A stretch of 64,000 nucleotides of DNA, from the NCBI GenBank assembly GCA_034679465.1, contig JAXDAV010000074.1:19949-83948 (forward strand). The letters run 5' to 3'. Both the position numbers and the translations under genes were made by a program. Numbering within the stretch: position 1 is the stretch's first letter; every line of letters begins with the position of its first letter. Positions 9,176 to 64,000 of this stretch are shown piece after piece. This stretch comes from Candidatus Aminicenantes bacterium (GTDB lineage Bacteria > Acidobacteriota > Aminicenantia > Aminicenantales > Saccharicenantaceae). The notes under the pieces were generated by a model that had not been told where the DNA came from, did not search any database, and saw only the letters and a program-made list of their open reading frames with translations.

Positions 9176-10738
9176 ATGAACGCGTTGACGTACGCCGGCA
9201 TCGCCGTGATCGTCATCCTGGCCGCGGCGGTCGCGGTCCTCCTGCTCAAGAGGCAGGCCGGATCCCGGAAGGCCGCCGAGGCCGAAGAGCAGGCCCGGGC
9301 GATCCTCGACCGGGCCCGGGAAGAAGGGGATAAGATCAAGCGGGAGGCGGCCATCGAGGCCCGCGAGAAGGACCTGGCCCGCCTGAACGAGTTCGAAGCC
9401 ATCAACCGGGAGAAACAGCGCAAGATCAACGAGACCGAGCGCCGGCTCCTCAGCAAGGAGGAGAACCTGGAGCGGCGGTTCCAGTCGATCGAGCGCAAGG
9501 AGCGCGACTTCGGTCAGAAGGAGCGCAAGCTGACCCAGAAGGAGAAGGACCTCGAGGTCGAGGAGACCCAGATCGCCGAGGCCGTCCGGAAGGGCCTCCA
9601 GGAGCTCGAGAAGATCTCCGGCCTGACCCAGGAAGAGGCCAAGGCCATGCTGATCAAGAAGATCGAGGACGAGGCCCGCCTCGAGGCCATCGCCACCGTC
9701 CGGCGCATCGAGGAGGAGGCCCGCGAGAAGGCCGCCCAGTCGGCCCGCGAGATCATGTCCAACGCCATCCAGCGCTCGGCCGCCGAGCACGTCGTCGAGA
9801 CCACGGTGTCCGTGGTCGACCTGCCGTCGGACGACATGAAGGGGCGCATCATCGGCCGCGAGGGCCGCAATATCCGGGCCCTGGAGATGGCCACGGGCGT
9901 CGACATCATCGTCGACGACACGCCCGAGGCCGTCATCCTGTCGAGCTTCGACCCCATCCGCCGCGAGCTGGCCCGCCTGTCCATCCAGAAGCTGGTCACC
10001 GACGGGCGCATCCACCCGGCCCGCATCGAGGACATCGTCGAGTCGGTCAAGAACGACCTCGAGCAGAAGATCAAGCAGGAAGGCGAGTCGGCCGTCCTGG
10101 AGCTCAAGGTCCGCGACATCCACCCCGAGCTGATCAAGCTCCTGGGCAAGCTCAAGTACCGGACGAGCTACGGGCAGAACGTCCTCCAGCACACCAAGGA
10201 GGTGGCCATGCTCGCGGCCATGATGGCCCGCGAGATCGGCCTCGACACCAACGTGGCCCTGCGGGCCGGCCTGCTCCACGACATCGGCAAGGCCGTCGAC
10301 CGCGACGTCGAGGGCACGCACACCGAGCTCGGCGTCGAGCTGGCCAAAAAGTACGGCGAGTCCGAGAAGGTCGTCCAGGCCATCGCCTCGCATCACCGCG
10401 ACGTCGACTTCCCCTCGATCGAGGCCGTCCTCGTCCAGGCCGCCGACACGCTCTCGGCCGCCCGGCCCGGGGCCCGGCGCGAGCTGCTCGAGACCTACAT
10501 CCAGCGGCTGGAGAAGCTCGAGGAGATCGCCTGCTCGTTCGAGGGCGTGTCCAAGGCCTTCGCCCTGCAGGCCGGCCGCGAGATCCGCATCATCGTCGAG
10601 GCCCTCAAGGTCTCCGACGACAAGGCCTCCCTCCTGGCCAAGGACACCGCGGCCAAGATCAAGGCCGAGCTCGATTACCCCGGCCAGATCAAGGTCACGG
10701 TCATCCGGGAGATGAGGGCGGTCGAATATGCCCGCTGA
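9176..10738 (+). CDS. rny: ribonuclease Y
   Basis: 520 aa with an N-terminal TM helix, a coiled coil, a KH motif [15 protein letters not shown] and an HD motif LLHDIGKA. Confidence 0.95.
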
Positions 10739-11531
10739 GCTCGGGGTCCTCTTCCTCGGCGACATCATCGGCCGGCCCGGCCGGCGGGCCCTGGAGAAGT
10801 TCCTGCCGGGGCTCGTCCAGAAGCACCGGCCGTCGCTCATCGTCGCCAACGGCGAGAACGCGGCCGGCGGCAGCGGCATCACCGAGGAGATCGGCAAGGA
10901 CCTGTTCATGCACGTCGACGTCCTGACCTCGGGCAACCACATCTGGGACAAGAAGGACGCCCTGCCCTACCTCGAGCGCGAGCCCCGGCTCCTCCGCCCG
11001 GCCAACTACCCGCCGGTGAACCCCGGCCGCTCGTCGTACGTCTTCCAGGCGGCCGACGGCGCCCGGGCGGCCGTCCTCAGCCTCCAGGGGCGGGTCTTCA
11101 TGGAGCCGATCGACTGCCCGTTCAAGCGGGCCGACGAGGAGGTCGCCGCCCTCCGGGCCGTGACCCCGGTCATCATCGTCGATTTCCACGCCGAGGCGAC
11201 CTCCGAGAAGCAGGCCCTCGGCTGGCACCTCGACGGCCGCGTCTCGGCCGTCATCGGCACGCACACCCACGTCCCGACGTCGGACGAGCGGGTCCTGCCC
11301 CGGGGCACGGCCTACATCACCGACGCCGGCATGGCCGGCGGCCGCAACGCCGTCATCGGCATCGCCCGCGAACAGGCCCTGGCGCGGTTCCTGACCTCGC
11401 GGCCCCAGCGCTTCGAGCCGTCGCGCGACGGCCTGTTCCTGTCCGGCGTCTTCGTCCGGATCGACGCGCAGACGGGGAAGGCCCTGTCGATCACGAGGGA
11501 GGTCTTGGCCGAGGATGGCCGCGAAGATTGA
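10728..11531 (+). CDS. ymdB: YmdB-family metallophosphoesterase (2',3'-cyclic-nucleotide 2'-phosphodiesterase)
   Basis: 267 aa, with [19 protein letters not shown] and GNHIWD motifs, and the conserved rny-ymdB pairing. Confidence 0.85.
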
Positions 11532-54890: not shown

Positions 54891-55424
54891 TCAGGACGCG
54901 CCGATCCGTTTCAAGCCCGCGCGCAGGGCCTCCCCCAGGGCGATGATGTCGGCGTAGTCCGCCGCTCCGCCGTCGCCGCGCCCGCGACGCAACAGGCTGA
55001 AACGCAAGCGGTTGCGCGTGTGCCGGTAGCCGAACTCGATCCCCGGATGGCCGAAGAAGAGGGTCATCATCGTCTCGGTCATCTTGGTCAGGGGCGGCCG
55101 GTCGACGTGGGAGAGCCCGAACCGGGCCGTGACCCGCGTCCCCGCTCCCGGATCGGAGGAGAGGGTCAGCCGGCCGCCGCAGAGGCCGGCGGTCTGGGCC
55201 AGGAGCGGGAGCCCGAGGCCCGTCCGCTTCCGCCCGGTCGTGTAGAACGGATCGAGGGCCCGCGCCCGCTCCTCCGCGGCCATGCCCCGGCCGTTGTCGG
55301 TCACCCGGATCGTCAGCGCGTCCCGGAGATCGCTCTCGTTGACGGCGATGAGCACGCGGGTCGCGCCGGCGGCCGCGGCGTTCTCGGCGAGATCGAGGAT
55401 GTGGAGCGAGAGGTCCTCGATCAT
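54891..55424 (-). CDS. GHKL/HATPase_c ATP-binding protein without a DHp/phospho-His domain
   Basis: 177 aa with an N box HILDLAENAAAAGA, G1 DNGRGM and G2 GLGLPL, starting directly at the ATPase fold. ATGA overlap with the upstream PHP gene. Confidence 0.75.
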   Translation of the reverse strand: MIEDLSLHILDLAENAAAAGATRVLIAVNESDLRDALTIRVTDNGRGMAAEERARALDPFYTTGRKRTGLGLPLLAQTAGLCGGRLTLSSDPGAGTRVTARFGLSHVDRPPLTKMTETMMTLFFGHPGIEFGYRHTRNRLRFSLLRRGRGDGGAADYADIIALGEALRAGLKRIGAS

Positions 55425-56167
55425 GGCCCGACGATCCTCCGGCCCTCCCGGCCCGCCAGGGCCAGGCGGATCTCCCCGAGGCCCGTTCCTTCGACCAGGA
55501 AGTCTGTCGCGGCCGCGCCGATCTCCTCCGGCGTGTGGGCGTCCGAAAAGCGGACGATCGGCAGGGGGGCCAGCGATCCGAAAGCGGCCCGGGCCTGCTC
55601 CGCCGTCAGCCGGGGGGAGACCTCGATGGCCTCCAGCGCCAGCCCCGGGGGGATGAAACCGAGCTGAGAGACGATGCTGAACGAGTCCCGGTCGACGTGG
55701 CCGGCGATGGCCAGGCCGCCGTGGCCGCGGATGAGATCGACCGCCTCCCGGACCGGGAAGAGGGTCGCCCCGAGGAGACAGCGCGGGCAGAAGCCGGTCA
55801 CGTCATCGGCGGCGTCGACGAGGACCTGGTCGGCGACGAACTTCATCTTCGCGGCGAGGTCGGGGAGGTTCCGATAGACCTCCTCCTGGAACGGGCCGAG
55901 GTCGACCCCGGCGTCGAAGAGGCCGAGGATGTGGACCTCTTCGGCCGTCGTCATCTCGATGCCCGGGAGGACGGCCAGGCCCGTCCCGGCCGCGGCCTCG
56001 ATCACGGCGCCGGCGTTCTCCGTCGTGTTGTGGTCGGTGACGGCGATGAGGTCGAGCCCGGCCGCGCGGGCCCGGTCGACGACCGCGCGGGGCGACATCG
56101 TCAGCTCGCCGCAGGGCGAGAGGCAGGTATGGATGTGGAGGTCGGCCCGGACCCGCCGGAGGGCCAT
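55421..56167 (-). CDS. PHP-domain (polymerase/histidinol-phosphatase type) metal-dependent phosphoesterase
   Basis: 248 aa, with ADLHIHTCLSPCG, IAVTDHNT, the GIEMTT motifs and C-terminal SDAH. Confidence 0.8.
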   Translation of the reverse strand: MALRRVRADLHIHTCLSPCGELTMSPRAVVDRARAAGLDLIAVTDHNTTENAGAVIEAAAGTGLAVLPGIEMTTAEEVHILGLFDAGVDLGPFQEEVYRNLPDLAAKMKFVADQVLVDAADDVTGFCPRCLLGATLFPVREAVDLIRGHGGLAIAGHVDRDSFSIVSQLGFIPPGLALEAIEVSPRLTAEQARAAFGSLAPLPIVRFSDAHTPEEIGAAATDFLVEGTGLGEIRLALAGREGRRIVGP

Positions 56168-56508
56168 CAGCTCCCCTTGACGCCCAGCGCATGGAGACGG
56201 CCGGCCAGCTCGAAGGCGCCCAGGCGGGCCCCCAGCAGCGGGATCTTTTCCCGTTCGGCCTGGGCCAAGGTTTCCGCCGTGGGCGCCCGGCCGCCGACGA
56301 GGACGACGCCGGCCAGCTCCTTGAGGACGGCCACGGCGACGATGTTCGGATGGACCTGCATGGTCACCCAGACGTCGTCCTTGCGGGCGTGCCCGATGAC
56401 GTCGGAGAGGAGGTCGCTCGCGTAGCCGCCTCCGACGGGCCGGTCGAGCTGGACGCCGGGGGTGAAGACCGTGAGATCGAGACGCGTTGCCAGATCGCTG
56501 AGGGTCAT
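56167..56508 (-). CDS. DRTGG-domain protein (113 aa)
   Basis: This is the C-terminal part of track ORF 56167..57759, starting at ATG 56508 (MTLSDLATRLDL...GGGYASDLLSDVIGHARKDDVWVTMQVHPNIVAVAVLKELAGVVLV). It matches the small DRTGG proteins found in hydrogenase-regulatory clusters. ATGA overlap with the upstream gene. Confidence 0.7.
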   Translation of the reverse strand: MTLSDLATRLDLTVFTPGVQLDRPVGGGYASDLLSDVIGHARKDDVWVTMQVHPNIVAVAVLKELAGVVLVGGRAPTAETLAQAEREKIPLLGARLGAFELAGRLHALGVKGS

Positions 56509-57803
56509 CGCTTCTCCTTCCGGCCCTTCTTCGCCCGGCCCTTGGGGACGAACGGGCAGTCCTCGAGCCGGGCGTAGCCGCGGACGATGTCGTCGGCCAG
56601 GGTCCGGCAATCGGGGGCCCCGCAGACGCCGCAGTCCTTGAGCGGCAGGCCGGCGAAGATCCTCTCCCGCCGCTTGGCTTTGCGGATGGCCTTGGCCGGG
56701 TCCCGGTCCAGGGGGCGCGGTTCCGCGGGCGTCACCGGGTGGTCGAACGAGAGGAAATTCTTGTGATAGAGGCGGCTGACGTCCTTCTGGTCGATGACCG
56801 CGTGCTCGCCCGCGGCGGCGACGAGCTCGAGGACGCGGCTCTTGGCCAGGAAGCGGTTCTCGACCCCGAGCGGCCCGCCCACGCACCCGTCGGGACAGAC
56901 CGTGCACTCGAGGAGATCGATGTCCTGGAGCAGTCCGCCCTCGACCTCGTCGAGGACGCGCATGGTGTCCCGGATGCCCGAGACGGCCACGGCCCGATGG
57001 GTCTTGAGGCCGCGCGTCTCCCCGCCGGAGAGGGGCCAGCCCATGCCCAGGCCGCTGAAGAGCGTCTCCGGGAAGAGGTGGCGCATCAGGGCGTCCTCCT
57101 CGCTCTTGCGCAGGGCCTTGAGGATCTGGGGGAAGATGTCCCGGATCGACATGGCCCCGTCGAGGTAGGACCTGGCCAGGGTGGCCGGGCTGTTGATGGA
57201 GACGATCTTGGCCGGGCAGGGCGTGATGTGAATGATGCCGATCCGCTCGGCCGGGATCCCCAGAGCCTTGGGCAGGATGGTCCGGAGGATCTTGGCGGCG
57301 ATCTCCCGCGGCGGCTCGATCGGCATGATCTGGCCGCAGAGGGAGGGGTAGCGCCGCTGGATGATCCGGACGACGACGGGGCAGGTCGAGGTGATGTAGG
57401 GCCGGGGCCCGGGGTGCTCGTCGAGATACTTCTCGGTCGCGGCGCAGTTGAGCTCGCAGATCGAGCTGAGATCGTAGACCTCGTCGAACCCGACCCGGCG
57501 CAGGGCCGACAGGATCTCGGTGGGCAGGACGGTGGGGCCGAACTGGCCGTAGATGACCGTCGAGGGGATGGCGACCTTGTAGTCGAAGGCCTCCAGCGCG
57601 GCGAACGACGTGGTATGGGAGTGGACGGCCTCGTGGGGGCAGACGCGGAGACACTCGGCGCAGTCGATGCAGAGCTGGTCGATGATGCGGGCCTTGCCCC
57701 CCTCGACCCGGATGGCCCGGGTCGGGCAGGCCGACATGCAGCGGACACAGCCGACGCACTTGTCCTCGGTGATGTGGATGGCGTGGAAGTTCCTGTCGCT
57801 CAT
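56505..57803 (-). CDS. [FeFe]-hydrogenase-like Fe-S protein, putative sensory type (2x ferredoxin 4Fe-4S + variant H-domain + C-terminal Cx2Cx4Cx16C)
   Basis: 432 aa. It has C16x2Cx2Cx3CP and C45x2Cx2Cx3CP. The H-cluster motif equivalents are ITSTCP (res 137-142), TPCPAK (194-199) and ECTVCPDGCVGGP (299-311). The C-terminus has C391GVC394GAPDC399...C416. Confidence 0.8.
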   Translation of the reverse strand: MSDRNFHAIHITEDKCVGCVRCMSACPTRAIRVEGGKARIIDQLCIDCAECLRVCPHEAVHSHTTSFAALEAFDYKVAIPSTVIYGQFGPTVLPTEILSALRRVGFDEVYDLSSICELNCAATEKYLDEHPGPRPYITSTCPVVVRIIQRRYPSLCGQIMPIEPPREIAAKILRTILPKALGIPAERIGIIHITPCPAKIVSINSPATLARSYLDGAMSIRDIFPQILKALRKSEEDALMRHLFPETLFSGLGMGWPLSGGETRGLKTHRAVAVSGIRDTMRVLDEVEGGLLQDIDLLECTVCPDGCVGGPLGVENRFLAKSRVLELVAAAGEHAVIDQKDVSRLYHKNFLSFDHPVTPAEPRPLDRDPAKAIRKAKRRERIFAGLPLKDCGVCGAPDCRTLADDIVRGYARLEDCPFVPKGRAKKGRKEKR

Positions 57804-58255
57804 GGCCTCACGTGTCCGTTCTTCCTGATGACGATGTCGAGGCGCGTCCCCCGGCCCACTTCCGAGTCGATGGCGAAGTCGTCGGCGTTCCTGCGGATGT
57901 TCGGCAGTCCCATGCCGGCGCCGAAGCCGAGCTCCCGCATCTCGGCCGTCGCCGTCGAGTACCCCTCGGTCAGGGCCAGCTCGACGTCCGGGATGCCCGG
58001 GCCGCGGTCGTCGATGGTGAGCCGGACCTCGCCGGGGGACACGGTCAGGTCCATCCGGGCGTCCCAGGCGTACATGATGACGTTCATCTCGGCCTCATAG
58101 GCGACGATGGCCGCCCGCCGCACCGTCGCCGTGTCGATCCCCAGGTCCTTCAGCAGCTCCTTGATGTCGCAGGCGGCGGCGCCGGCCCGGGCGAAGTCCC
58201 CGCCCTTGACGGGGTACTCCCGGCGGAAGACGGACTCAGCGGCGGGCATGGCCAC
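57800..58255 (-). CDS. RsbW-like anti-sigma-factor-type Ser/Thr kinase fold ATPase (HATPase_c_2)
   Basis: 151 aa. AIVAYEAEMNVIMY, DDRGPGIPD and GFGAGMGLPNI motifs resemble the N, G1 and G2 boxes. ATGA overlap with the hydrogenase-like gene. Confidence 0.7.
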   Translation of the reverse strand: MAMPAAESVFRREYPVKGGDFARAGAAACDIKELLKDLGIDTATVRRAAIVAYEAEMNVIMYAWDARMDLTVSPGEVRLTIDDRGPGIPDVELALTEGYSTATAEMRELGFGAGMGLPNIRRNADDFAIDSEVGRGTRLDIVIRKNGHVRP

Positions 58256-58592
58256 CGTCCTCGACCCGCCCGGCGATCCGCGAGCAGGCCGTGAACATCG
58301 TCATCCTGGTCGCGATCAGCGGGAGGCCCTTCGCCCGGGCCTCGGCGATGGCCTCCGCGGCCGGGCGCTTGCCCTGGACGAAGACGACCGCGGCGATGTC
58401 GGCGACGGCGCAGGCGCAGACGACGTGGGGATTGGCCAGCCCGGTCAGGAGGAGCGAGCCCGGCTCGGCGGAGGTGAGGACGTCGCTCATGAGATCGGAA
58501 GCGAAGACCTTGTGGAAGGCGGTCTCGGGGGCGGTCGCCGGGGTCAGGAGCTCGGCGTCGAGAAGGGCCAGAACGTCCTTGAGAGCGATCAT
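58236..58592 (-). CDS. DRTGG-domain protein (118 aa), paralogue of 56167..56508
   Basis: This is the C-terminal part of track ORF 58236..60197, starting at ATG 58592 after GGGAGG (MIALKDVLALLDAELL...FASDLMSDVLTSAEPGSLLLTGLANPHVVCACAVADIAAVVFV). Confidence 0.7.
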   Translation of the reverse strand: MIALKDVLALLDAELLTPATAPETAFHKVFASDLMSDVLTSAEPGSLLLTGLANPHVVCACAVADIAAVVFVQGKRPAAEAIAEARAKGLPLIATRMTMFTACSRIAGRVEDGGHARR

Positions 58593-58696: not shown

Positions 58697-60283
58697 TCAC
58701 TTGGCCTTGAGGATCTCCTGGACCTCGGCCTTGTCGACGTCGGTGATGAACGGGATGGCGCTGATGTCGGCGGCCGGCTTGGTGATGGCCGCGATGTCGT
58801 CCCGGCTGATGTAGCCCAGGTTGAACTTGCGCGCGCCGGCCATCAGCTGCCGCAGGCCCTGGCTCAGCCGCTCGAAGTAGGTGTAGACGCCCATCGCCCC
58901 GGGCGGCAGGTCCTTGAACCGCTCGCCGAAGCGGTGCTTGAGCTCGGGGGCGGTGACGAAGATCTCGTCCTTGGTGCTGCCGAAGCGCTCGACATAGACC
59001 GGGATCTGGCCGTCGGAGATGCGGCCGCCGATGGTCTTCCCGACCATGGCCGCGGCCATGGGCGAGCGGGCCATGCCGACGAGCTTGACGTAGGGCGCGC
59101 CGAGGGCCAGGGCCTTGAAGATCTGGTCCTCGAAGGTGATGCCGCCGGCGAAGGCCAGATCGGGGACGTACTCGCCCTGCTGGGCCAGCTGGTCGGCGTA
59201 CTGATAGGTCAGCGACCAGATCTCGACGGCCGGGACGCCCCACTCGTTCATCATCCGCCAGGGGCTCATGCCCGTGCCGCCGCCGGCGCCGTCGACGGTC
59301 AGCAGGTCGAGCTTGGCCTTGGAGGCGAACTTGACCGCCCGGGCCAGGTCGGCCGGCCGATAGGCGCCGGTCTTGAGGAAGACGCGCTTGGCCCCGGCCT
59401 GGCGCAGCTCCTCGACCCTCTGCATGAACTCGCCCTCGTCGACCATGCCCATGCGGGAGTGGCGCTCGAACTCCTTGAAACTGCCCTTCTCGAAGGCCTC
59501 GATGACCTTGGGGTTGTCGGGGTCGGGCAGGACGATGTAGCCCTTCTTCTTCAGGGCCTGGGCCTTCTTGACGGTCTTGAGCTTGACCTCGCCGCCGATG
59601 TCCTTGGCCCCCTGGCCCCATTTGAGCTCGACCGTCTCGACGCCCAGCTTCTGGACGGCGTATTCCTGGACGCCGAGGCGGGTGTCCTCGACGTTGGCCT
59701 GGACGACGACGTCGCCGTAGCCGTCCCCCTGCCAGTCGCGGAACGACCGGACGCGGAACTCCATGTCCGGGGAGCGGACGACCTTGCCGTTCTTGAGCTC
59801 GGTCTCGTCGTCCATGCCGCAGACGTTTTCGCCGATCGTCAGGATGACCCCGGAGACGGCCGCCCCGCCGCCGAGGCCGGCCCAGTTCTGCTTGGCGATG
59901 TTGGTCGAGCCCATGCCCGAGATGACGAAGGGCAGTCTGAGCTTGAGGTCCTTGTCGCGGCCGATCCTGGTCTCGGTCGTGACCTTCTCGAACGTGGCCT
60001 TGTCGCTGTCGGCGGGGACGCCGTAGGCCCCCTTGGCCGTCCCCATGATGCTGAAGTGGGACAGGTCGATGGGGTAGTCCTTCTCGCAGGCCGCCGTGAT
60101 GATGCCGAACGGCTGCGGATAGAGGACCTCGTGGCCGCGGTAGGCGGACTTCCCGATCTCGCACATCCCGACGCAGCCGTCGACGCAGGTCACGCACATC
60201 CCGCTGAAGGGGCTGATCGATCCCTCCGTCCGGTTCTTGGTCAGGGTGGCGGCGCTTCTGTTGAGCTTGGTCATGGTCGGCAT
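58697..60283 (-). CDS. glutamate synthase-related FMN-binding protein (GltB domain-2 type) with an N-terminal Cys cluster
   Basis: 528 aa. N-terminal CVTCVDGCVGMC, a TIM-barrel region with DGAGGGTGMSP (equivalent to the GltS FMN-domain GGTGA motif), and LAFAGGI. No amidotransferase domain. Confidence 0.8.
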   Translation of the reverse strand: MPTMTKLNRSAATLTKNRTEGSISPFSGMCVTCVDGCVGMCEIGKSAYRGHEVLYPQPFGIITAACEKDYPIDLSHFSIMGTAKGAYGVPADSDKATFEKVTTETRIGRDKDLKLRLPFVISGMGSTNIAKQNWAGLGGGAAVSGVILTIGENVCGMDDETELKNGKVVRSPDMEFRVRSFRDWQGDGYGDVVVQANVEDTRLGVQEYAVQKLGVETVELKWGQGAKDIGGEVKLKTVKKAQALKKKGYIVLPDPDNPKVIEAFEKGSFKEFERHSRMGMVDEGEFMQRVEELRQAGAKRVFLKTGAYRPADLARAVKFASKAKLDLLTVDGAGGGTGMSPWRMMNEWGVPAVEIWSLTYQYADQLAQQGEYVPDLAFAGGITFEDQIFKALALGAPYVKLVGMARSPMAAAMVGKTIGGRISDGQIPVYVERFGSTKDEIFVTAPELKHRFGERFKDLPPGAMGVYTYFERLSQGLRQLMAGARKFNLGYISRDDIAAITKPAADISAIPFITDVDKAEVQEILKAK

Positions 60284-60311
60284 GATGTTACCTCCTCGAT
60301 GTCCTTCGTCG

Positions 60312-60995
60312 TTAAGATTTTTTGTCCCGGACGCAGGTGCCGCAGCGGCCCGCGTCGTACATCCAGCACTGGAGGTCGTCGTAGTGCTCCAGGCAGGTCG
60401 GTTCCATGGTCAGGCAGGCGTTGCACAGGGCCGTCTCGGCGTTCGGCCCCTGGCAGCGGAGCTGGCAGGCGGGGCAGATGTACATGCAGGCGCCGCACAG
60501 CCGGCAGACCTCCGAGCGCAGGTCGAACGGCGTCGAGATCGTCCGCTTGTGGCCCCTCTGCTGGAAGCCGATGGCCCGGGCGTCCATCTGCTCGGCGCAG
60601 ATCCGCGTGCACAGGCCGCAAAGGACGCACTCGTCGTTCCGGGGGGCGAACCGGACCTTGGTCACGCCGAAGCGGGAGGCCAGGTCCTGGAGGACCTTGG
60701 AGCCCGGCGCGGTGGAGAGCATGAGCTCGATCATCATCCGCCGCGCCGACCAGACCCGGTCGGAATCGGTCCGGACGACGAGCCCCGCTTCGGCCGGGTA
60801 GGTGCAGGACGTCACCAGCTTCGACCGCGGCCGCTCGCCGATCTCGACGAGACAGAGCCGGCAGCCGCCGAACTCCGTCAGGCCTTCGTGATGACAGAGG
60901 GTCGGGATCTCCAGGCCGTAGAACTTGGCCGTCTCGAGGACGGTCCAGCCCTCCTCGGCCTTGACGCACAAGCCGTTCAGGATGAGTTCGATCAT
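60312..60995 (-). CDS. 2Fe-2S plus 4Fe-4S ferredoxin-type protein resembling the N-terminus of NuoG/HydA/HylA, without a catalytic domain
   Basis: 227 aa. MIELILNG..TVLETA...PTLCHHEGLTEFGGCRLCLVEI (2Fe-2S fold), CVLCGLCTRIC and CRLCGACMYICP (4Fe-4S), plus extra C-terminal cysteines. 4 nt overlap with the upstream gene. Confidence 0.75.
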   Translation of the reverse strand: MIELILNGLCVKAEEGWTVLETAKFYGLEIPTLCHHEGLTEFGGCRLCLVEIGERPRSKLVTSCTYPAEAGLVVRTDSDRVWSARRMMIELMLSTAPGSKVLQDLASRFGVTKVRFAPRNDECVLCGLCTRICAEQMDARAIGFQQRGHKRTISTPFDLRSEVCRLCGACMYICPACQLRCQGPNAETALCNACLTMEPTCLEHYDDLQCWMYDAGRCGTCVRDKKS

Positions 60996-63900
60996 GTTTC
61001 ACGTCCCAGCGCATTCTTGGCGTCCCGGGTCTCGAGCTCACAGCGGAGGCAGCGCCGGGCCTCCTTCAGGGCGAGCTCCCCGGTGAAGCCGAGCTCGATC
61101 TCGTCGTGTCCCGACCGCCTCTTGCCGCGGGGCAGGTGGGGCATCCTGGCCCTCTTCGTGTTTTGGGCCTCCTCCTCGGTCAGCTTGACCGGCTCCACGT
61201 AGCAGGCCGGGCGCGTGACCTCGTTGACCCGGACGAAGGGGCGTCCCTCGAGGTAGGCCTCGATCGACCGGGCCGCGGCCTTGCCCGCGGCCATGGCCTC
61301 GACGACGCTGCTCGGGCCCGAGACGACGTCGCCGCCGGCGAAGACGCCCGGCCGGGTCGTGGCCATGCTGGCCGGGTCGACGATGATCGTGCCCCACTCG
61401 GGCGACAGCGTCAGGCCGTCGCTCTCCCTGAGGTAGGGCGTGTAGGCCCGCTCGCTGATGGCCAGGATGAGGGTATCGGCCGGCACCTGGAACTCCGACC
61501 CCGGGATGGGCACGGGCCGGGCCCGGCCGCTCGAGTCCTTCTCGCCGAGCTTCATGCGGATGCACTCGACGCCGACGACCCGGCCGTCCCGGGTGCGGAT
61601 GCGGACCGGGGCGGTCAGGTATTCGATCCGGATCCCCTCCTCGAGCCCGGCCTCGATCTCTTCGGGGTAGGCCGGCATCTCCCGCCGTGTCCGGCGGTAG
61701 AGGATCGTGGCCTCCTTCACCCGCTTGTCGCGGAAGGCGACGCGGGCGGCGTCGACGGCCGAGTTGCCGCCGCCGATGACCGCGACCCGGGCGCCGAGCG
61801 AGACCGGGATCCCGAGATGATGGTCTTTGAGGTATTCGAGGGCCTGGAGGACGCCTTCGGCCTCTTCGCCGGGGACGCCCATCTCGAGCGGCTTGTGGGC
61901 GCCCGTGGCCAGGTAGACGGCCTTGTAGCCCTGCCGGAAGAGATCGTCCAGGCTGAAGTCCTTGCCGAGCGTCATGTTGGTCTTGATGCTCAGGCCGCAG
62001 CTGACGAGGTAGTCGAGGTCGTCCTGGAGCCTCTCCTTGGGCAGGCGGTGGTCGGGGATGGTCACCCGGAGCATGCCCCCGGCGACCGGCAGGGACTCGA
62101 GGATCCGGACGGCGAAGCCCTTCTTGATGAGCTCGTAGCCCGCCGCCAGGCCGGACGGCCCGGCGCCGACGATGGCCACCTTCTCGGGCCGGGTGACGGG
62201 GAGCCTTTCGGGCGCGTCGAGGCCCTTCTCCCGGGCCCAATCCAGGACATAGCGCTTCAGGGCCCGGATGGCGATGGGCTCGCCGATCTCCCCGGCCCGG
62301 CAGACGGATTCGCAGGGCCGGCTGCAGACCCGGCCGCAGACCGAAGGGAGCGGGTTGTCCTTGCGGATGACCCGGAAGGCCTCCGCGTGCTTCTTCTGGG
62401 CGACGAGGCCGATGTAGCTCGAGGCCTCCTGGTCGATGGGGCAGGCGTACTGACAGGGCGCGGAGACGATCTCCTTGCAGACCATGGCCGGGCACCGTCT
62501 CTCGACGACGTGCTTCTCGTACTCGGGCCGGAAGTAGCGCAGAGTGGACAGGACCGGGTTGGCGGCCGTCTGGCCGAGCCCGCAGAGGGAGGCGTCCTTG
62601 ACCGCCGCCGCCAGCTCTTCGAGCAGGGCGATGTCCTCCAGGGTCCCCTGGCCGTCCGTGATCCTGCTGACGATCTCGTACATGCGCTGGGTGCCCTCGC
62701 GGCAGGAGACGCACTTGCCGCAGGACTCGTCGCGCAGGAAATTCAGGAAGTACTTGGCCAAGTCGACCATGCAGGTCTTGTCGTCCATGACGATCATGCC
62801 GCCGGAGCCCATCATGGCCCCCGCGGCCGTCAGGCTCTCGTAGTCGACCGGCAGGTCGAGGAGCTTGGCCGGGATGCAGCCGCCCGACGGGCCGCCGATC
62901 TGGACGCCCTTGATGGCCCGGCCGCCGGGGACGCCGCCGCCGATGCCGTCGACGATCTCCCGGAGGCTGATGCCCATCGGGACCTCGACCAGGCCGGTGT
63001 TGGCGATCTTGCCGACGAGCGAGAAGATCTTCGTCCCCTTGCTCGTGTCCGTGCCCAGGCCCGCGAACCACTTCGCCCCCCGGCGGATGATGTTGGGAAC
63101 GGTCGCCCAGGTCTCGACGTTGTTGTTGACCGTCGGCGAGCCCCAGAGCCCCTTGCTGGCCGGGAAGGGCGGGCGCTGCCGGGGCATGGCGATCTGGCCC
63201 TCGATCGAGGCGATCAGGGCCGTTTCCTCGCCCGAGACGAACGCGCCGGCCCCCTGGACGATCTCCAGGTCGAAATCGAAGCCCGTGCCCAGGATGTCGG
63301 TCCCGAGCAGTCCGTACTCCCGGGCCTGCCGGATGGCGATGTCGATGCGCTTGATGGCCAGGGGATACTCGTGGCGGATGTAGATGAACCCCTTCGCGGC
63401 GCCGATCGCCTTGGCCCCGATGATCATGCCCTCCAGGACCGCGTGGGGATCGGCCTCGAGGACGGAGCGGTCCATGAACGCGCCGGGGTCGCCCTCGTCG
63501 CCGTTGCAGATGATGTACTTCGGCGAGCGCTTCTGGACGGCGCAGGCGGCCCATTTCTTGCCCGTGGGGAAGCCGGCCCCGCCGCGGCCCCGCAGGCCGG
63601 AGGCGGCGATCTCTTCCAGGATGGCCTCGGGCGTCATCTCGGTCAGGGCCTTGGCCAGGGCCTCGTAGCCGTCGAAGGCGATGTACTCGTCGATCTTCTC
63701 CGGGTCGATCCGGCCGCGGTTGCGCAGGACGATGAGGCGCTGGTGCTTGAAGAACTCGATGTCCTTCATCTTCGGGACCGGCTTGTCCTCGGCCGGGGGG
63801 ACGTACATCAACTTCTTGACCGGCCGGCCCTTGAGGAGATGCTCCTCGACGAGACGGGGGATGTCCTCGGTCTTGAGAAGCTGATAGAAGATCCCGTCCG

Positions 63901-64000
63901 GCTGGACCATGACGATGGGGCCCCGCTCGCAGAACCCGTTACAGCCCGTGGCGATGACCTGGACCTCGTCCTGGAGGCGCCGCCTGGCGATCTCCTGCTC
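60992..64000 (-). CDS. fusion flavoprotein: thioredoxin-like 2Fe-2S + NuoF/HydB-like (FMN, NADH, 4Fe-4S) + GltD/NfnB-like (2x 4Fe-4S, FAD, NAD(P)H); the N-terminus lies beyond the right window edge
   Basis: The frame stays open upstream of the track M at 63910 to position 64000 (..VIATGCNGFCERGPIVMVQPDG, a Trx-like 2Fe-2S motif). NuoF motifs are GRGGAGFPTGKKW and ESCGKCVSCREG..LCGLGQ. GltD motifs are PLPSVCGRVCSRPCESVC, VAIVGAGPSGLAAGYEL and VAVIGGGNSAVDAAR. Confidence 0.85.
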   Translation of the reverse strand, partial: EQEIARRRLQDEVQVIATGCNGFCERGPIVMVQPDGIFYQLLKTEDIPRLVEEHLLKGRPVKKLMYVPPAEDKPVPKMKDIEFFKHQRLIVLRNRGRIDPEKIDEYIAFDGYEALAKALTEMTPEAILEEIAASGLRGRGGAGFPTGKKWAACAVQKRSPKYIICNGDEGDPGAFMDRSVLEADPHAVLEGMIIGAKAIGAAKGFIYIRHEYPLAIKRIDIAIRQAREYGLLGTDILGTGFDFDLEIVQGAGAFVSGEETALIASIEGQIAMPRQRPPFPASKGLWGSPTVNNNVETWATVPNIIRRGAKWFAGLGTDTSKGTKIFSLVGKIANTGLVEVPMGISLREIVDGIGGGVPGGRAIKGVQIGGPSGGCIPAKLLDLPVDYESLTAAGAMMGSGGMIVMDDKTCMVDLAKYFLNFLRDESCGKCVSCREGTQRMYEIVSRITDGQGTLEDIALLEELAAAVKDASLCGLGQTAANPVLSTLRYFRPEYEKHVVERRCPAMVCKEIVSAPCQYACPIDQEASSYIGLVAQKKHAEAFRVIRKDNPLPSVCGRVCSRPCESVCRAGEIGEPIAIRALKRYVLDWAREKGLDAPERLPVTRPEKVAIVGAGPSGLAAGYELIKKGFAVRILESLPVAGGMLRVTIPDHRLPKERLQDDLDYLVSCGLSIKTNMTLGKDFSLDDLFRQGYKAVYLATGAHKPLEMGVPGEEAEGVLQALEYLKDHHLGIPVSLGARVAVIGGGNSAVDAARVAFRDKRVKEATILYRRTRREMPAYPEEIEAGLEEGIRIEYLTAPVRIRTRDGRVVGVECIRMKLGEKDSSGRARPVPIPGSEFQVPADTLILAISERAYTPYLRESDGLTLSPEWGTIIVDPASMATTRPGVFAGGDVVSGPSSVVEAMAAGKAAARSIEAYLEGRPFVRVNEVTRPACYVEPVKLTEEEAQNTKRARMPHLPRGKRRSGHDEIELGFTGELALKEARRCLRCELETRDAKNALGRET

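Follow-up and report, generated by a model that had tools for sequence, protein, structure and literature searches.

A 64,000-nucleotide stretch of a Candidatus Aminicenantes genome (assembly GCA_034679465.1, contig JAXDAV010000074.1, positions 19,949 to 83,948; hereafter the window) encodes a 432-amino-acid [FeFe]-hydrogenase-like protein, HydS-like, at positions 56505..57803. Its sequence places it among the HydS-type homologues of group D (M2e), and it is the predicted sensor component of a conserved, translationally coupled gene cassette. Because its lineage has neither HydE, HydF, or HydG nor a catalytic [FeFe] hydrogenase, the protein most likely lacks the [2Fe]H subcluster. That it acts as a redox sensor equipped with iron-sulfur (Fe-S) clusters only is, in our judgment, an evenly balanced proposition, and we favor it over the alternatives weighed below. 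All window features are given in window positions and lie on the minus strand.

The gene was identified by translation, Pfam, phmmer, and an AlphaFold model. Both of its junctions are 4-nt ATGA overlaps, its start ATG with the stop of the ATPase gene upstream and its TGA stop with the ATG of the gene that follows. Pfam detects an N-terminal ferredoxin domain of the Fer4 families with two [4Fe-4S] motifs, CVGCVRCMSACP and CIDCAECLRVCP (residues 10-60; 57624..57776), an H-domain (PF02906, Fe_hyd_lg_C, residues 79-311, E = 7e-26; 56871..57569), and a C-terminal [4Fe-4S] domain (PF04060, residues 386-418, E = 4.5e-11; 56550..56648). No further domain was detected with Pfam, and the protein ends 16 residues past C416.

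A first-pass annotation, made from the letters of the DNA, had described three H-cluster motifs and a C-terminal four-Cys motif, and its coordinates proved exact throughout. L1 is TSTCP (residues 138-142; 57378..57392) with ligand C141; L2 is TPCPAK (residues 194-199; 57207..57224) with ligand C196 and the cyanide-contacting Lys, K199; and L3 is ECTVCPDGCVGGP (residues 299-311; 56871..56909) with ligand C303 and the bridging C307. Solved enzymes bear out the identification of these motifs and of the four ligand cysteines: in phmmer alignments to T. kivui HydA2 and the D. desulfuricans hydrogenase in the PDB, ITSTCP pairs with FTSCCP, ITPCPAK with MPCxxK, and ECTVCPDGC with E(V/Y)M(T/A)CPxGC. 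The ligands C141, C196, C303, and C307 are invariant in 46 homologues, far beyond chance, and all 16 cluster cysteines, including the eight of the ferredoxin domain, are invariant in the protein's own clade. The C-terminal motif, C391-x2-C394-x4-C399-x16-C416, lies in the PF04060 match; the annotation had read it as an additional cluster site. It is followed by a Lys/Arg-rich tail, KGRAKKGRKEKR (56505-56540), which is a clade feature: most own-clade relatives end in KKEKR or KEKK. The AlphaFold model, built with 46 homologues as input, has a pLDDT of 92.6 and a pTM of 0.91, and its best structural matches are the [FeFe]-hydrogenases DdH, CbA5H, and CpI (TM-scores of 0.64-0.69, E values of ~1e-18 to 1e-20).

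Group D is defined by two ferredoxin clusters, an H-domain, and a Cx2Cx4Cx16C motif without a PAS domain; the proton-relay Cys (CpI C299) is not conserved and is mostly Ala, and M353 is replaced by Ser or Thr (PMC8163306). The Aminicenantes protein has this domain order, Fer4 followed by PF02906 and PF04060 with the four-Cys spacing 391/394/399/416, and it carries the group D markers T140 at the relay position and T194 at the M353 position, with T301 at the M497 position. Group C (M2f) proteins carry a PAS domain after the four-Cys motif; no PAS match was found here. At the group A signatures TSCCPxW, MPCxxKxxE, and ExMxCxxGCxxGGGQP, the protein reads TSTCPVV, TPCPAKIVS, and ECTVCPDGCVGGPL. 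The NCBIfam models for group A/B hydrogenases score only 78-97 bits against cut-offs of 406-450; since these matches are below threshold, assignment to a curated NCBIfam equivalog was rejected.

The only characterized member of group D is TamHydS from Thermoanaerobacter mathranii (PMC8163306), for which a proton path S249-E252-E289-D265 has been proposed (PMC10407848); the description of the group as sensory rests on inference only (PMC13104023). As the TamHydS reference for mapping residues by direct alignment, we used a coding sequence, damaged by optical character recognition, from the supplement of PMC13104023, which was left out of the tree. In this alignment A137 corresponds to T140, S191 to T194, S249 to S259, E252 to E262, D265 to S275, E289 to E299, and L291 to T301. 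S259 and E262 lie in an SGGE segment (residues 259-262; 57018..57029). The counterpart of the path-exit residue D265 is Ser275 in the whole of the protein's own clade, compared with Asp in 97% of Firmicute members. Thr140 is unusual as well, the same position being Ala in 47 of 59 Firmicute members.

The first-pass annotation had concluded that the catalytic proton-pathway residues are missing. This is correct for the group A path, whose CpI residues E279, E282, R286, C299, and S319 are replaced by A122, K125, E129, T140, and M160, but it does not extend to the group D relay, which is kept as S259/E262/E299. Similarly, the relay Cys is indeed a Thr, but one that keeps a hydroxyl side chain and marks a subclade, rather than a simple loss. 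The broader conclusion that this is a sensor or Fe-S redox protein and not a catalytic hydrogenase fits the findings. The deviations that drew attention to the gene are in fact the defining hallmarks of a family already described, with TamHydS as its characterized member (PMC8163306).

A maximum-likelihood tree was built from 99 cassette-linked homologues and rooted on six group A HydA H-domains, with group A as the only outside group represented. All of the cassette-linked homologues form one clade apart from group A HydA (support, 100). The protein falls within a 20-member Aminicenantes clade (support, 100), itself nested in a 40-member non-Firmicute clade (support, 98) of which 38 members are HydG negative. 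Thr at the C299 position marks a 26-member half of this larger clade. Genera on the published group D list (Hungateiclostridium, which is Acetivibrio, and Ruminiclostridium) fall in the Firmicute part of the tree, and TamHydS, again as the damaged coding sequence, is 47-49% identical to Firmicute members and ~33% identical to the target. Orthologues of the target occur at 77-93% identity in nearly every genome of its genus, at 65-68% in two further families, and at ~41-43% in others.

The usual context of a group D protein, a group A partner (usually HydABC) with HydEFG encoded in the same genome, was found neither in the target genome nor in 40 relatives; this is a contextual feature and lies outside the sequence definition of the group. 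In profile searches of the target genome (3.08 Mb in 82 contigs, 95.7% complete), the HydG and HydE models (TIGR03955 and TIGR03956) had no match, and the HydF model (TIGR03918) found only generic GTPases, at no more than 77 bits against a cut-off of 325. A tblastn search of the genome with HydG, HydF, and the intervening open reading frame (ORF) of Acetivibrio mesophilus and Anaerosolibacter returned GTPase-domain matches only. The target is the sole PF02906 H-domain match in its genome. We extended the search to 41 genomes of the order, drawn from 9 families and 13 genera, among them four single-contig assemblies and 26 genomes with a completeness of 90% or more. Not one of the 41 passed the cut-offs for HydG, HydE, or HydF, and 37 of them carry the H-domain protein. 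As a control, the same search recovered HydG, with scores of 488-947 bits, from 27 further genomes containing a cassette homologue, including three cultured Firmicutes and one genome each from Thermoanaerobaculia, Eisenbacteria, and the deltaproteobacteria. The first-pass annotation had itself named a genome without HydEFG as the finding that would turn its reading toward a non-H2 redox sensor; the absence found here favors that branch.

Six genes make up the cassette: DRTGG, GHKL ATPase, HydS-like, DRTGG, PHP phosphoesterase, and GHKL ATPase. The first DRTGG-domain protein (118 aa; 58236..58592) was recognized by Pfam PF07085 and as a conserved neighbor, and the GHKL/SpoIIAB-like ATPase 1 (151 aa; 57800..58255) ends in the overlap with the hydS-like start. 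Downstream of the hydS-like gene are the second DRTGG-domain protein (113 aa; 56167..56508), whose start overlaps the hydS-like stop, the PHP-domain phosphoesterase (248 aa; 55421..56167), which keeps its metal-binding His and Asp residues, and GHKL ATPase 2 (177 aa; 54891..55424), assigned from profile matches and conserved residues. The ATP-binding residues of the ATPases and the metal-binding residues of the PHP protein are conserved across 50-70 homologues. The gene order is kept in ~80 loci, from Firmicutes, Aminicenantes, WOR-3, Stahlbacteria, Coatesbacteria, Zixibacteria, Bacteroidota, other Acidobacteriota, Desulfobacterota, and Spirochaetia.

Wherever the flanks of these ~80 loci suffice, the cassette is joined to genes for NuoE, a small ferredoxin, and NuoF. 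Gene order thus ties it, across phyla, to predicted NuoE/NuoF enzymes of the Bfu (flavin-based electron-bifurcating) type. In the window, genes of such an enzyme, assigned from profile matches and locus comparison, occupy 58697..64000: a GltB-like flavin mononucleotide (FMN) subunit (58697-60283), a NuoG/HydA-N-terminal-like Fe-S protein (60312-60995), and a Trx-2Fe2S/NuoF/GltD fusion (60992 to past the window end). The end module, in contrast, differs between groups: Firmicutes have a 580-aa HydA that includes a true H-domain, and their cassette precedes hydCDBA; the target's own clade has the short NuoG-like protein with the GltB-like protein; and Thermoanaerobaculia, Terriglobia, and Eisenbacteria have a giant protein that contains GltD. 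In a second Aminicenantes clade (sister clade B), the sensor lies upstream of NuoE-ferredoxin-NuoF, and the end module is a NuoG-N/HdrA-like fusion with an Mvh-like [NiFe] hydrogenase. Classification of this clade B partner as the NiFe-HydABCSL type was dropped: in a PDB sequence search its 585-aa protein is a NuoG-N-terminal/HdrA-like fusion, and its [NiFe] large subunit is as much Mvh-like as HydL-like. In the non-Firmicute subclade the partner enzyme is never an [FeFe] hydrogenase.

The cassette does have a hydrogenase neighbor here, of the [NiFe] type. Beyond the right end of the window, on the same strand, follow genes for a small [2Fe-2S] protein, NuoE, HypA, HypB, a maturation protease, and a complete Hox [NiFe] hydrogenase, HoxFUYH. 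The Hox operon (HoxF-HoxU-HoxY-HoxH, protease, HypB, HypA; contig positions 85282-91269, locus L026:2283-8270, minus strand) lies directly upstream of the NuoE/ferredoxin/NuoF-GltD genes, and HoxH carries both the RxCGxCxxxH and the DPCxxCxxH motif. Strict co-occurrence of the sensor with [NiFe] hydrogenases was considered and rejected, as family f3 has [NiFe] enzymes without the sensor.

Several further features of these loci were recorded. Residues 59-61 of DRTGG protein 1 in the window (58236-58592) are CAC, in contrast to RTA in at least 90% of 68 homologues. A second cassette, paralogous to the first at 37-39% identity (L033:2552-12229 and L034:6643-16285), is present in some genomes of the genus and is composed of DRTGG, a 710-836-aa NuoG-like protein, GltD, DRTGG, ATPase, HydS-like, NuoE, and NuoF, with neither the PHP protein nor a second ATPase. 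Some other Aminicenantes genomes encode an extra H-domain protein of 523-708 aa with stronger PF02906 scores (L035:9128-11215, L036:8639-10726, and L037:8153-9724), which is absent from the target genome. It adjoins a 674-754-aa GltD-like protein and reads WISSFCPS and GPCISR, with Phe at the relay position and Arg for the Lys; maturases were not found in these genomes either.

Sister clade B (L029:4264-5640, L030:8577-9896, L032:8779-10146, and L047:9998-11347) has CxGRxxCxxxCP, with Arg replacing the second Cys of the first ferredoxin motif, and Ile, Leu, Met, or Val in place of the group D relay Glu. A branch of Eisenbacteria, Terriglobia, and Thermoanaerobaculia (L053, L056, and L069; HydS-like ORFs at ~10000-11350) has lost the cyanide-contacting Lys (TPCSA[V/I/T]); two of these three genomes nonetheless encode HydG. 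The Firmicute HydA proteins beside the group D cassette (L108:15898-17646, L066:18471-20222, and 18 other loci) all read TSCSPGW, with Ser at the [4Fe-4S]H ligand position that is the second Cys of TSCCP. An alignment error was rejected as the source, because the motif recurs in the solved HydA1 of A. woodii (PDB 7Q4V/7Q4W); the HydA1 of T. kivui reads TSCCPSW.

As an Fe-S-only redox sensor, the protein would contain four [4Fe-4S] clusters, two N-terminal, one at the [4Fe-4S]H site, and one C-terminal, and no [2Fe]H subcluster. It would report the redox state of a ferredoxin or of its partner enzyme, with electrons entering via the N-terminal relay. A change in redox state, or the binding of a small ligand at the open [4Fe-4S]H pocket, would alter its conformation and so modulate the adjacent GHKL ATPase/PHP phosphatase pair, which would act on the DRTGG proteins. 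The output would tune the neighboring GOGAT-like (glutamate-synthase-like) NuoEF enzyme and possibly the upstream Hox [NiFe] hydrogenase.

Whatever its cofactor, the protein does not look like a gene in decay. Within the genus, the ratio of nonsynonymous to synonymous substitution rates (dN/dS) is 0.23 for the whole protein and reaches its lowest regional value, 0.17, in the H-domain. Such low values argue against decay, and the H-domain with its di-iron pocket remains subject to purifying selection. The conservation of the pocket is one of several points that weigh against a sensor with plain Fe-S clusters. In the HydG-less clade, 12 pocket positions mapped by homology (T82, V83, T140, P165, R166, E167, T194, K199, W256, E262, E299, and T301) vary less than the remainder of the H-domain (entropy, 0.29 versus 0.70; permutation p ~0.005), in a test that is indicative only, given that the sequences are related and the positions were of our choosing. 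Firmicute members show the same pattern. A conserved pocket that includes K199 and E262 would be expected if a [2Fe]H-like cofactor were still bound. The linkage of the cassette to [NiFe] hydrogenases, Hox here and Mvh-like in the sister clade, means that H2 may still be a relevant signal. HydEFG is likewise missing from most archaeal genomes with [FeFe]-hydrogenases, for which another way of maturation has been proposed (PMC11216029). Finally, ~40% of the Firmicute-type metagenome-assembled genomes (MAGs) tested were also HydG negative, and in several of these the same locus encodes a true HydA. For this reason the absence of HydG from a single MAG is weak evidence, and we rely on the zero count at the level of the lineage.

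Some of these points lend substance to an alternative in which the protein is a genuine H2 sensor with a complete H-cluster, its [2Fe]H made or acquired independently of HydEFG, that reports H2 to control Hox and the NuoEF-type enzyme. We regard this as possible though on the whole unlikely. It would account for pocket residues, among them K199, E262, E299, and T194, that are invariant in the clade and above the H-domain average in conservation, for the retained group D proton relay, and for a cassette that stays beside [NiFe] hydrogenases. Archaea and eukaryotes that encode [FeFe] hydrogenases but no maturases offer a precedent, some of the eukaryotes reportedly making an active H2-producing enzyme (PMC11216029). 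However, none of the 41 genomes of the order has HydE, HydF, or HydG, and an alternative pathway is known in no organism. Sister clade B has hydrophobic residues in place of the relay Glu, and a related branch is without the cyanide-binding Lys. Beside the di-iron site, the target's own clade departs from the Firmicute consensus at T82 (Pro, the P231 equivalent), T140 (Ala, the A137 equivalent), and D305 (Gly), as well as at the path exit (Asp to S275), and in TamHydS the single change A137C is enough to lower activity (PMC11803613). A related way out, that maturase genes are present and were missed through incomplete assembly or divergence beyond the models, leaving an ordinary group D hydrogenase, appears very improbable. 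The target genome is indeed 95.7% complete in 82 contigs, and many Firmicute MAGs with a true HydA are also HydG negative, but the zero count across the order takes in 26 genomes of at least 90% completeness and four that consist of a single contig, and the independent tblastn search was negative where controls were positive at 488-947 bits.

The constancy of the genomic association would also fit a different role, that of an accessory electron-transfer or assembly subunit of NuoEF-type complexes, with the ferredoxin-like part as a wire, the H-domain as a scaffold, and the ATPase, PHP, and DRTGG proteins serving maturation of the complex. The cassette is strictly tied to NuoE/NuoF genes whatever the catalytic end module, and in Firmicutes one ATPase and the small ferredoxin sit among the structural genes. 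We consider this role improbable nonetheless: the purified A. mobile NiFe-HydABCSL complex has five subunits, without HydD, HydP, or HisK, and the HydABC structures are likewise not known to contain any subunit beyond HydA, HydB, and HydC. Moreover, TamHydS is a stand-alone, slow, high-affinity hydrogenase, and a SpoIIAB-like kinase fold paired with a phosphatase suggests signaling. The loss of a catalytic [FeFe] partner and of the maturases might also be taken to mean that the gene is a functionless, decaying remnant of a former hydrogenase operon. This was already disfavored and is scarcely credible against dN/dS values of 0.17-0.23, 16 cluster cysteines invariant in the clade, a cassette that is intact and translationally coupled, and orthologues in nearly all genomes of the genus. 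The reading that we retain as the best supported is that of an Fe-S-only redox sensor.

What is new here is not the protein family, which was already known, but a deep non-Firmicute subclade of it in which the relay residue is Thr, known maturation genes are missing, and the partner enzymes are not [FeFe] hydrogenases. A literature search, itself incomplete and so unable to disprove an existing report, found no account of the DRTGG/PHP cassette or of group D proteins in maturase-less bacteria. The branch combines genomes without any known H-cluster route, partners other than [FeFe] hydrogenases, and a di-iron pocket under selection, so that the protein either senses redox state via plain Fe-S clusters or points to a new route for the di-iron cofactor. 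A bolder generalization, which we think doubtful, is that bacteria of at least the order Aminicenantales, and probably of other phyla of the subclade, still fill the pocket with a di-iron cofactor, or a related one, in the absence of HydE, HydF, and HydG, or, in a milder version, that the whole subclade works without [2Fe]H. Were the cofactor loaded in this way, there would be a second H-cluster maturation route in bacteria; were the milder version true, the "group D sensory hydrogenases" would at root be redox sensors of electron-bifurcating NuoEF enzymes and not H2 sensors. Two questions are thereby made testable: whether such proteins sense H2 or the redox state of a bifurcating enzyme, and whether H-clusters can be built independently of the maturases, as already suspected for archaea. 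In practical terms, an "[FeFe] hydrogenase" call from Pfam or HydDB in Aminicenantes and similar MAGs should not be taken to mean that the organism can make H2.

Among known systems, the closest is TamHydS (PMC8163306, PMC10407848, PMC11803613, PMC13104023), which shares with the Aminicenantes protein two N-terminal [4Fe-4S] motifs, the H-domain, and the Cx2Cx4Cx16C motif without a PAS domain, as well as the four H-cluster cysteines, the lack of Cys at the C299 position, a hydroxyl at the M353 position, and the S249/E252/E289 relay. Homologues are likewise flanked by the DRTGG/ATPase/PHP cassette and NuoE/NuoF genes. The target differs in having Thr for Ala137, Ser for D265, and Thr for both L291 and the P231 equivalent, and in its setting: an Aminicenantes host, a genome with neither HydEFG nor a group A hydrogenase, and a GOGAT-like partner instead of HydABC. 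TmHydS of Thermotoga maritima, from group C (M2f), is also a slow, sensor-type H-domain protein with no relay Cys and with a C-terminal four-Cys cluster; in group C, unlike in the target, a PAS domain is present at the C terminus and the two Met positions are Ser/Gly. A precedent for an H-domain without [2Fe]H is provided by Nar1/NARFL (IOP) of eukaryotes, H-domain homologues that use [4Fe-4S] clusters only, in organisms not known to have HydEFG. These proteins act in cytosolic Fe-S assembly, differ in their N-terminal cluster motif, and are not known to carry a PF04060 domain at the C terminus or to be accompanied by a kinase cassette; in contrast to them, the target has di-iron pocket residues that are conserved rather than eroded. 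The NuoEF (Bfu) enzymes, represented by FeFe-HydABC (PDB 8A6T, 7Q4V, and 7P5H) and NiFe-HydABCSL (7T2R), are relevant as genomic context only, the target not being a subunit of the solved complexes. Unlike in HydABC and HydABCSL, the end module at this locus is a glutamate-synthase-like FMN protein and not a hydrogenase, and the cassette follows the genes for NuoE, ferredoxin, NuoF-GltD, and the NuoG-like and GltB-like proteins.

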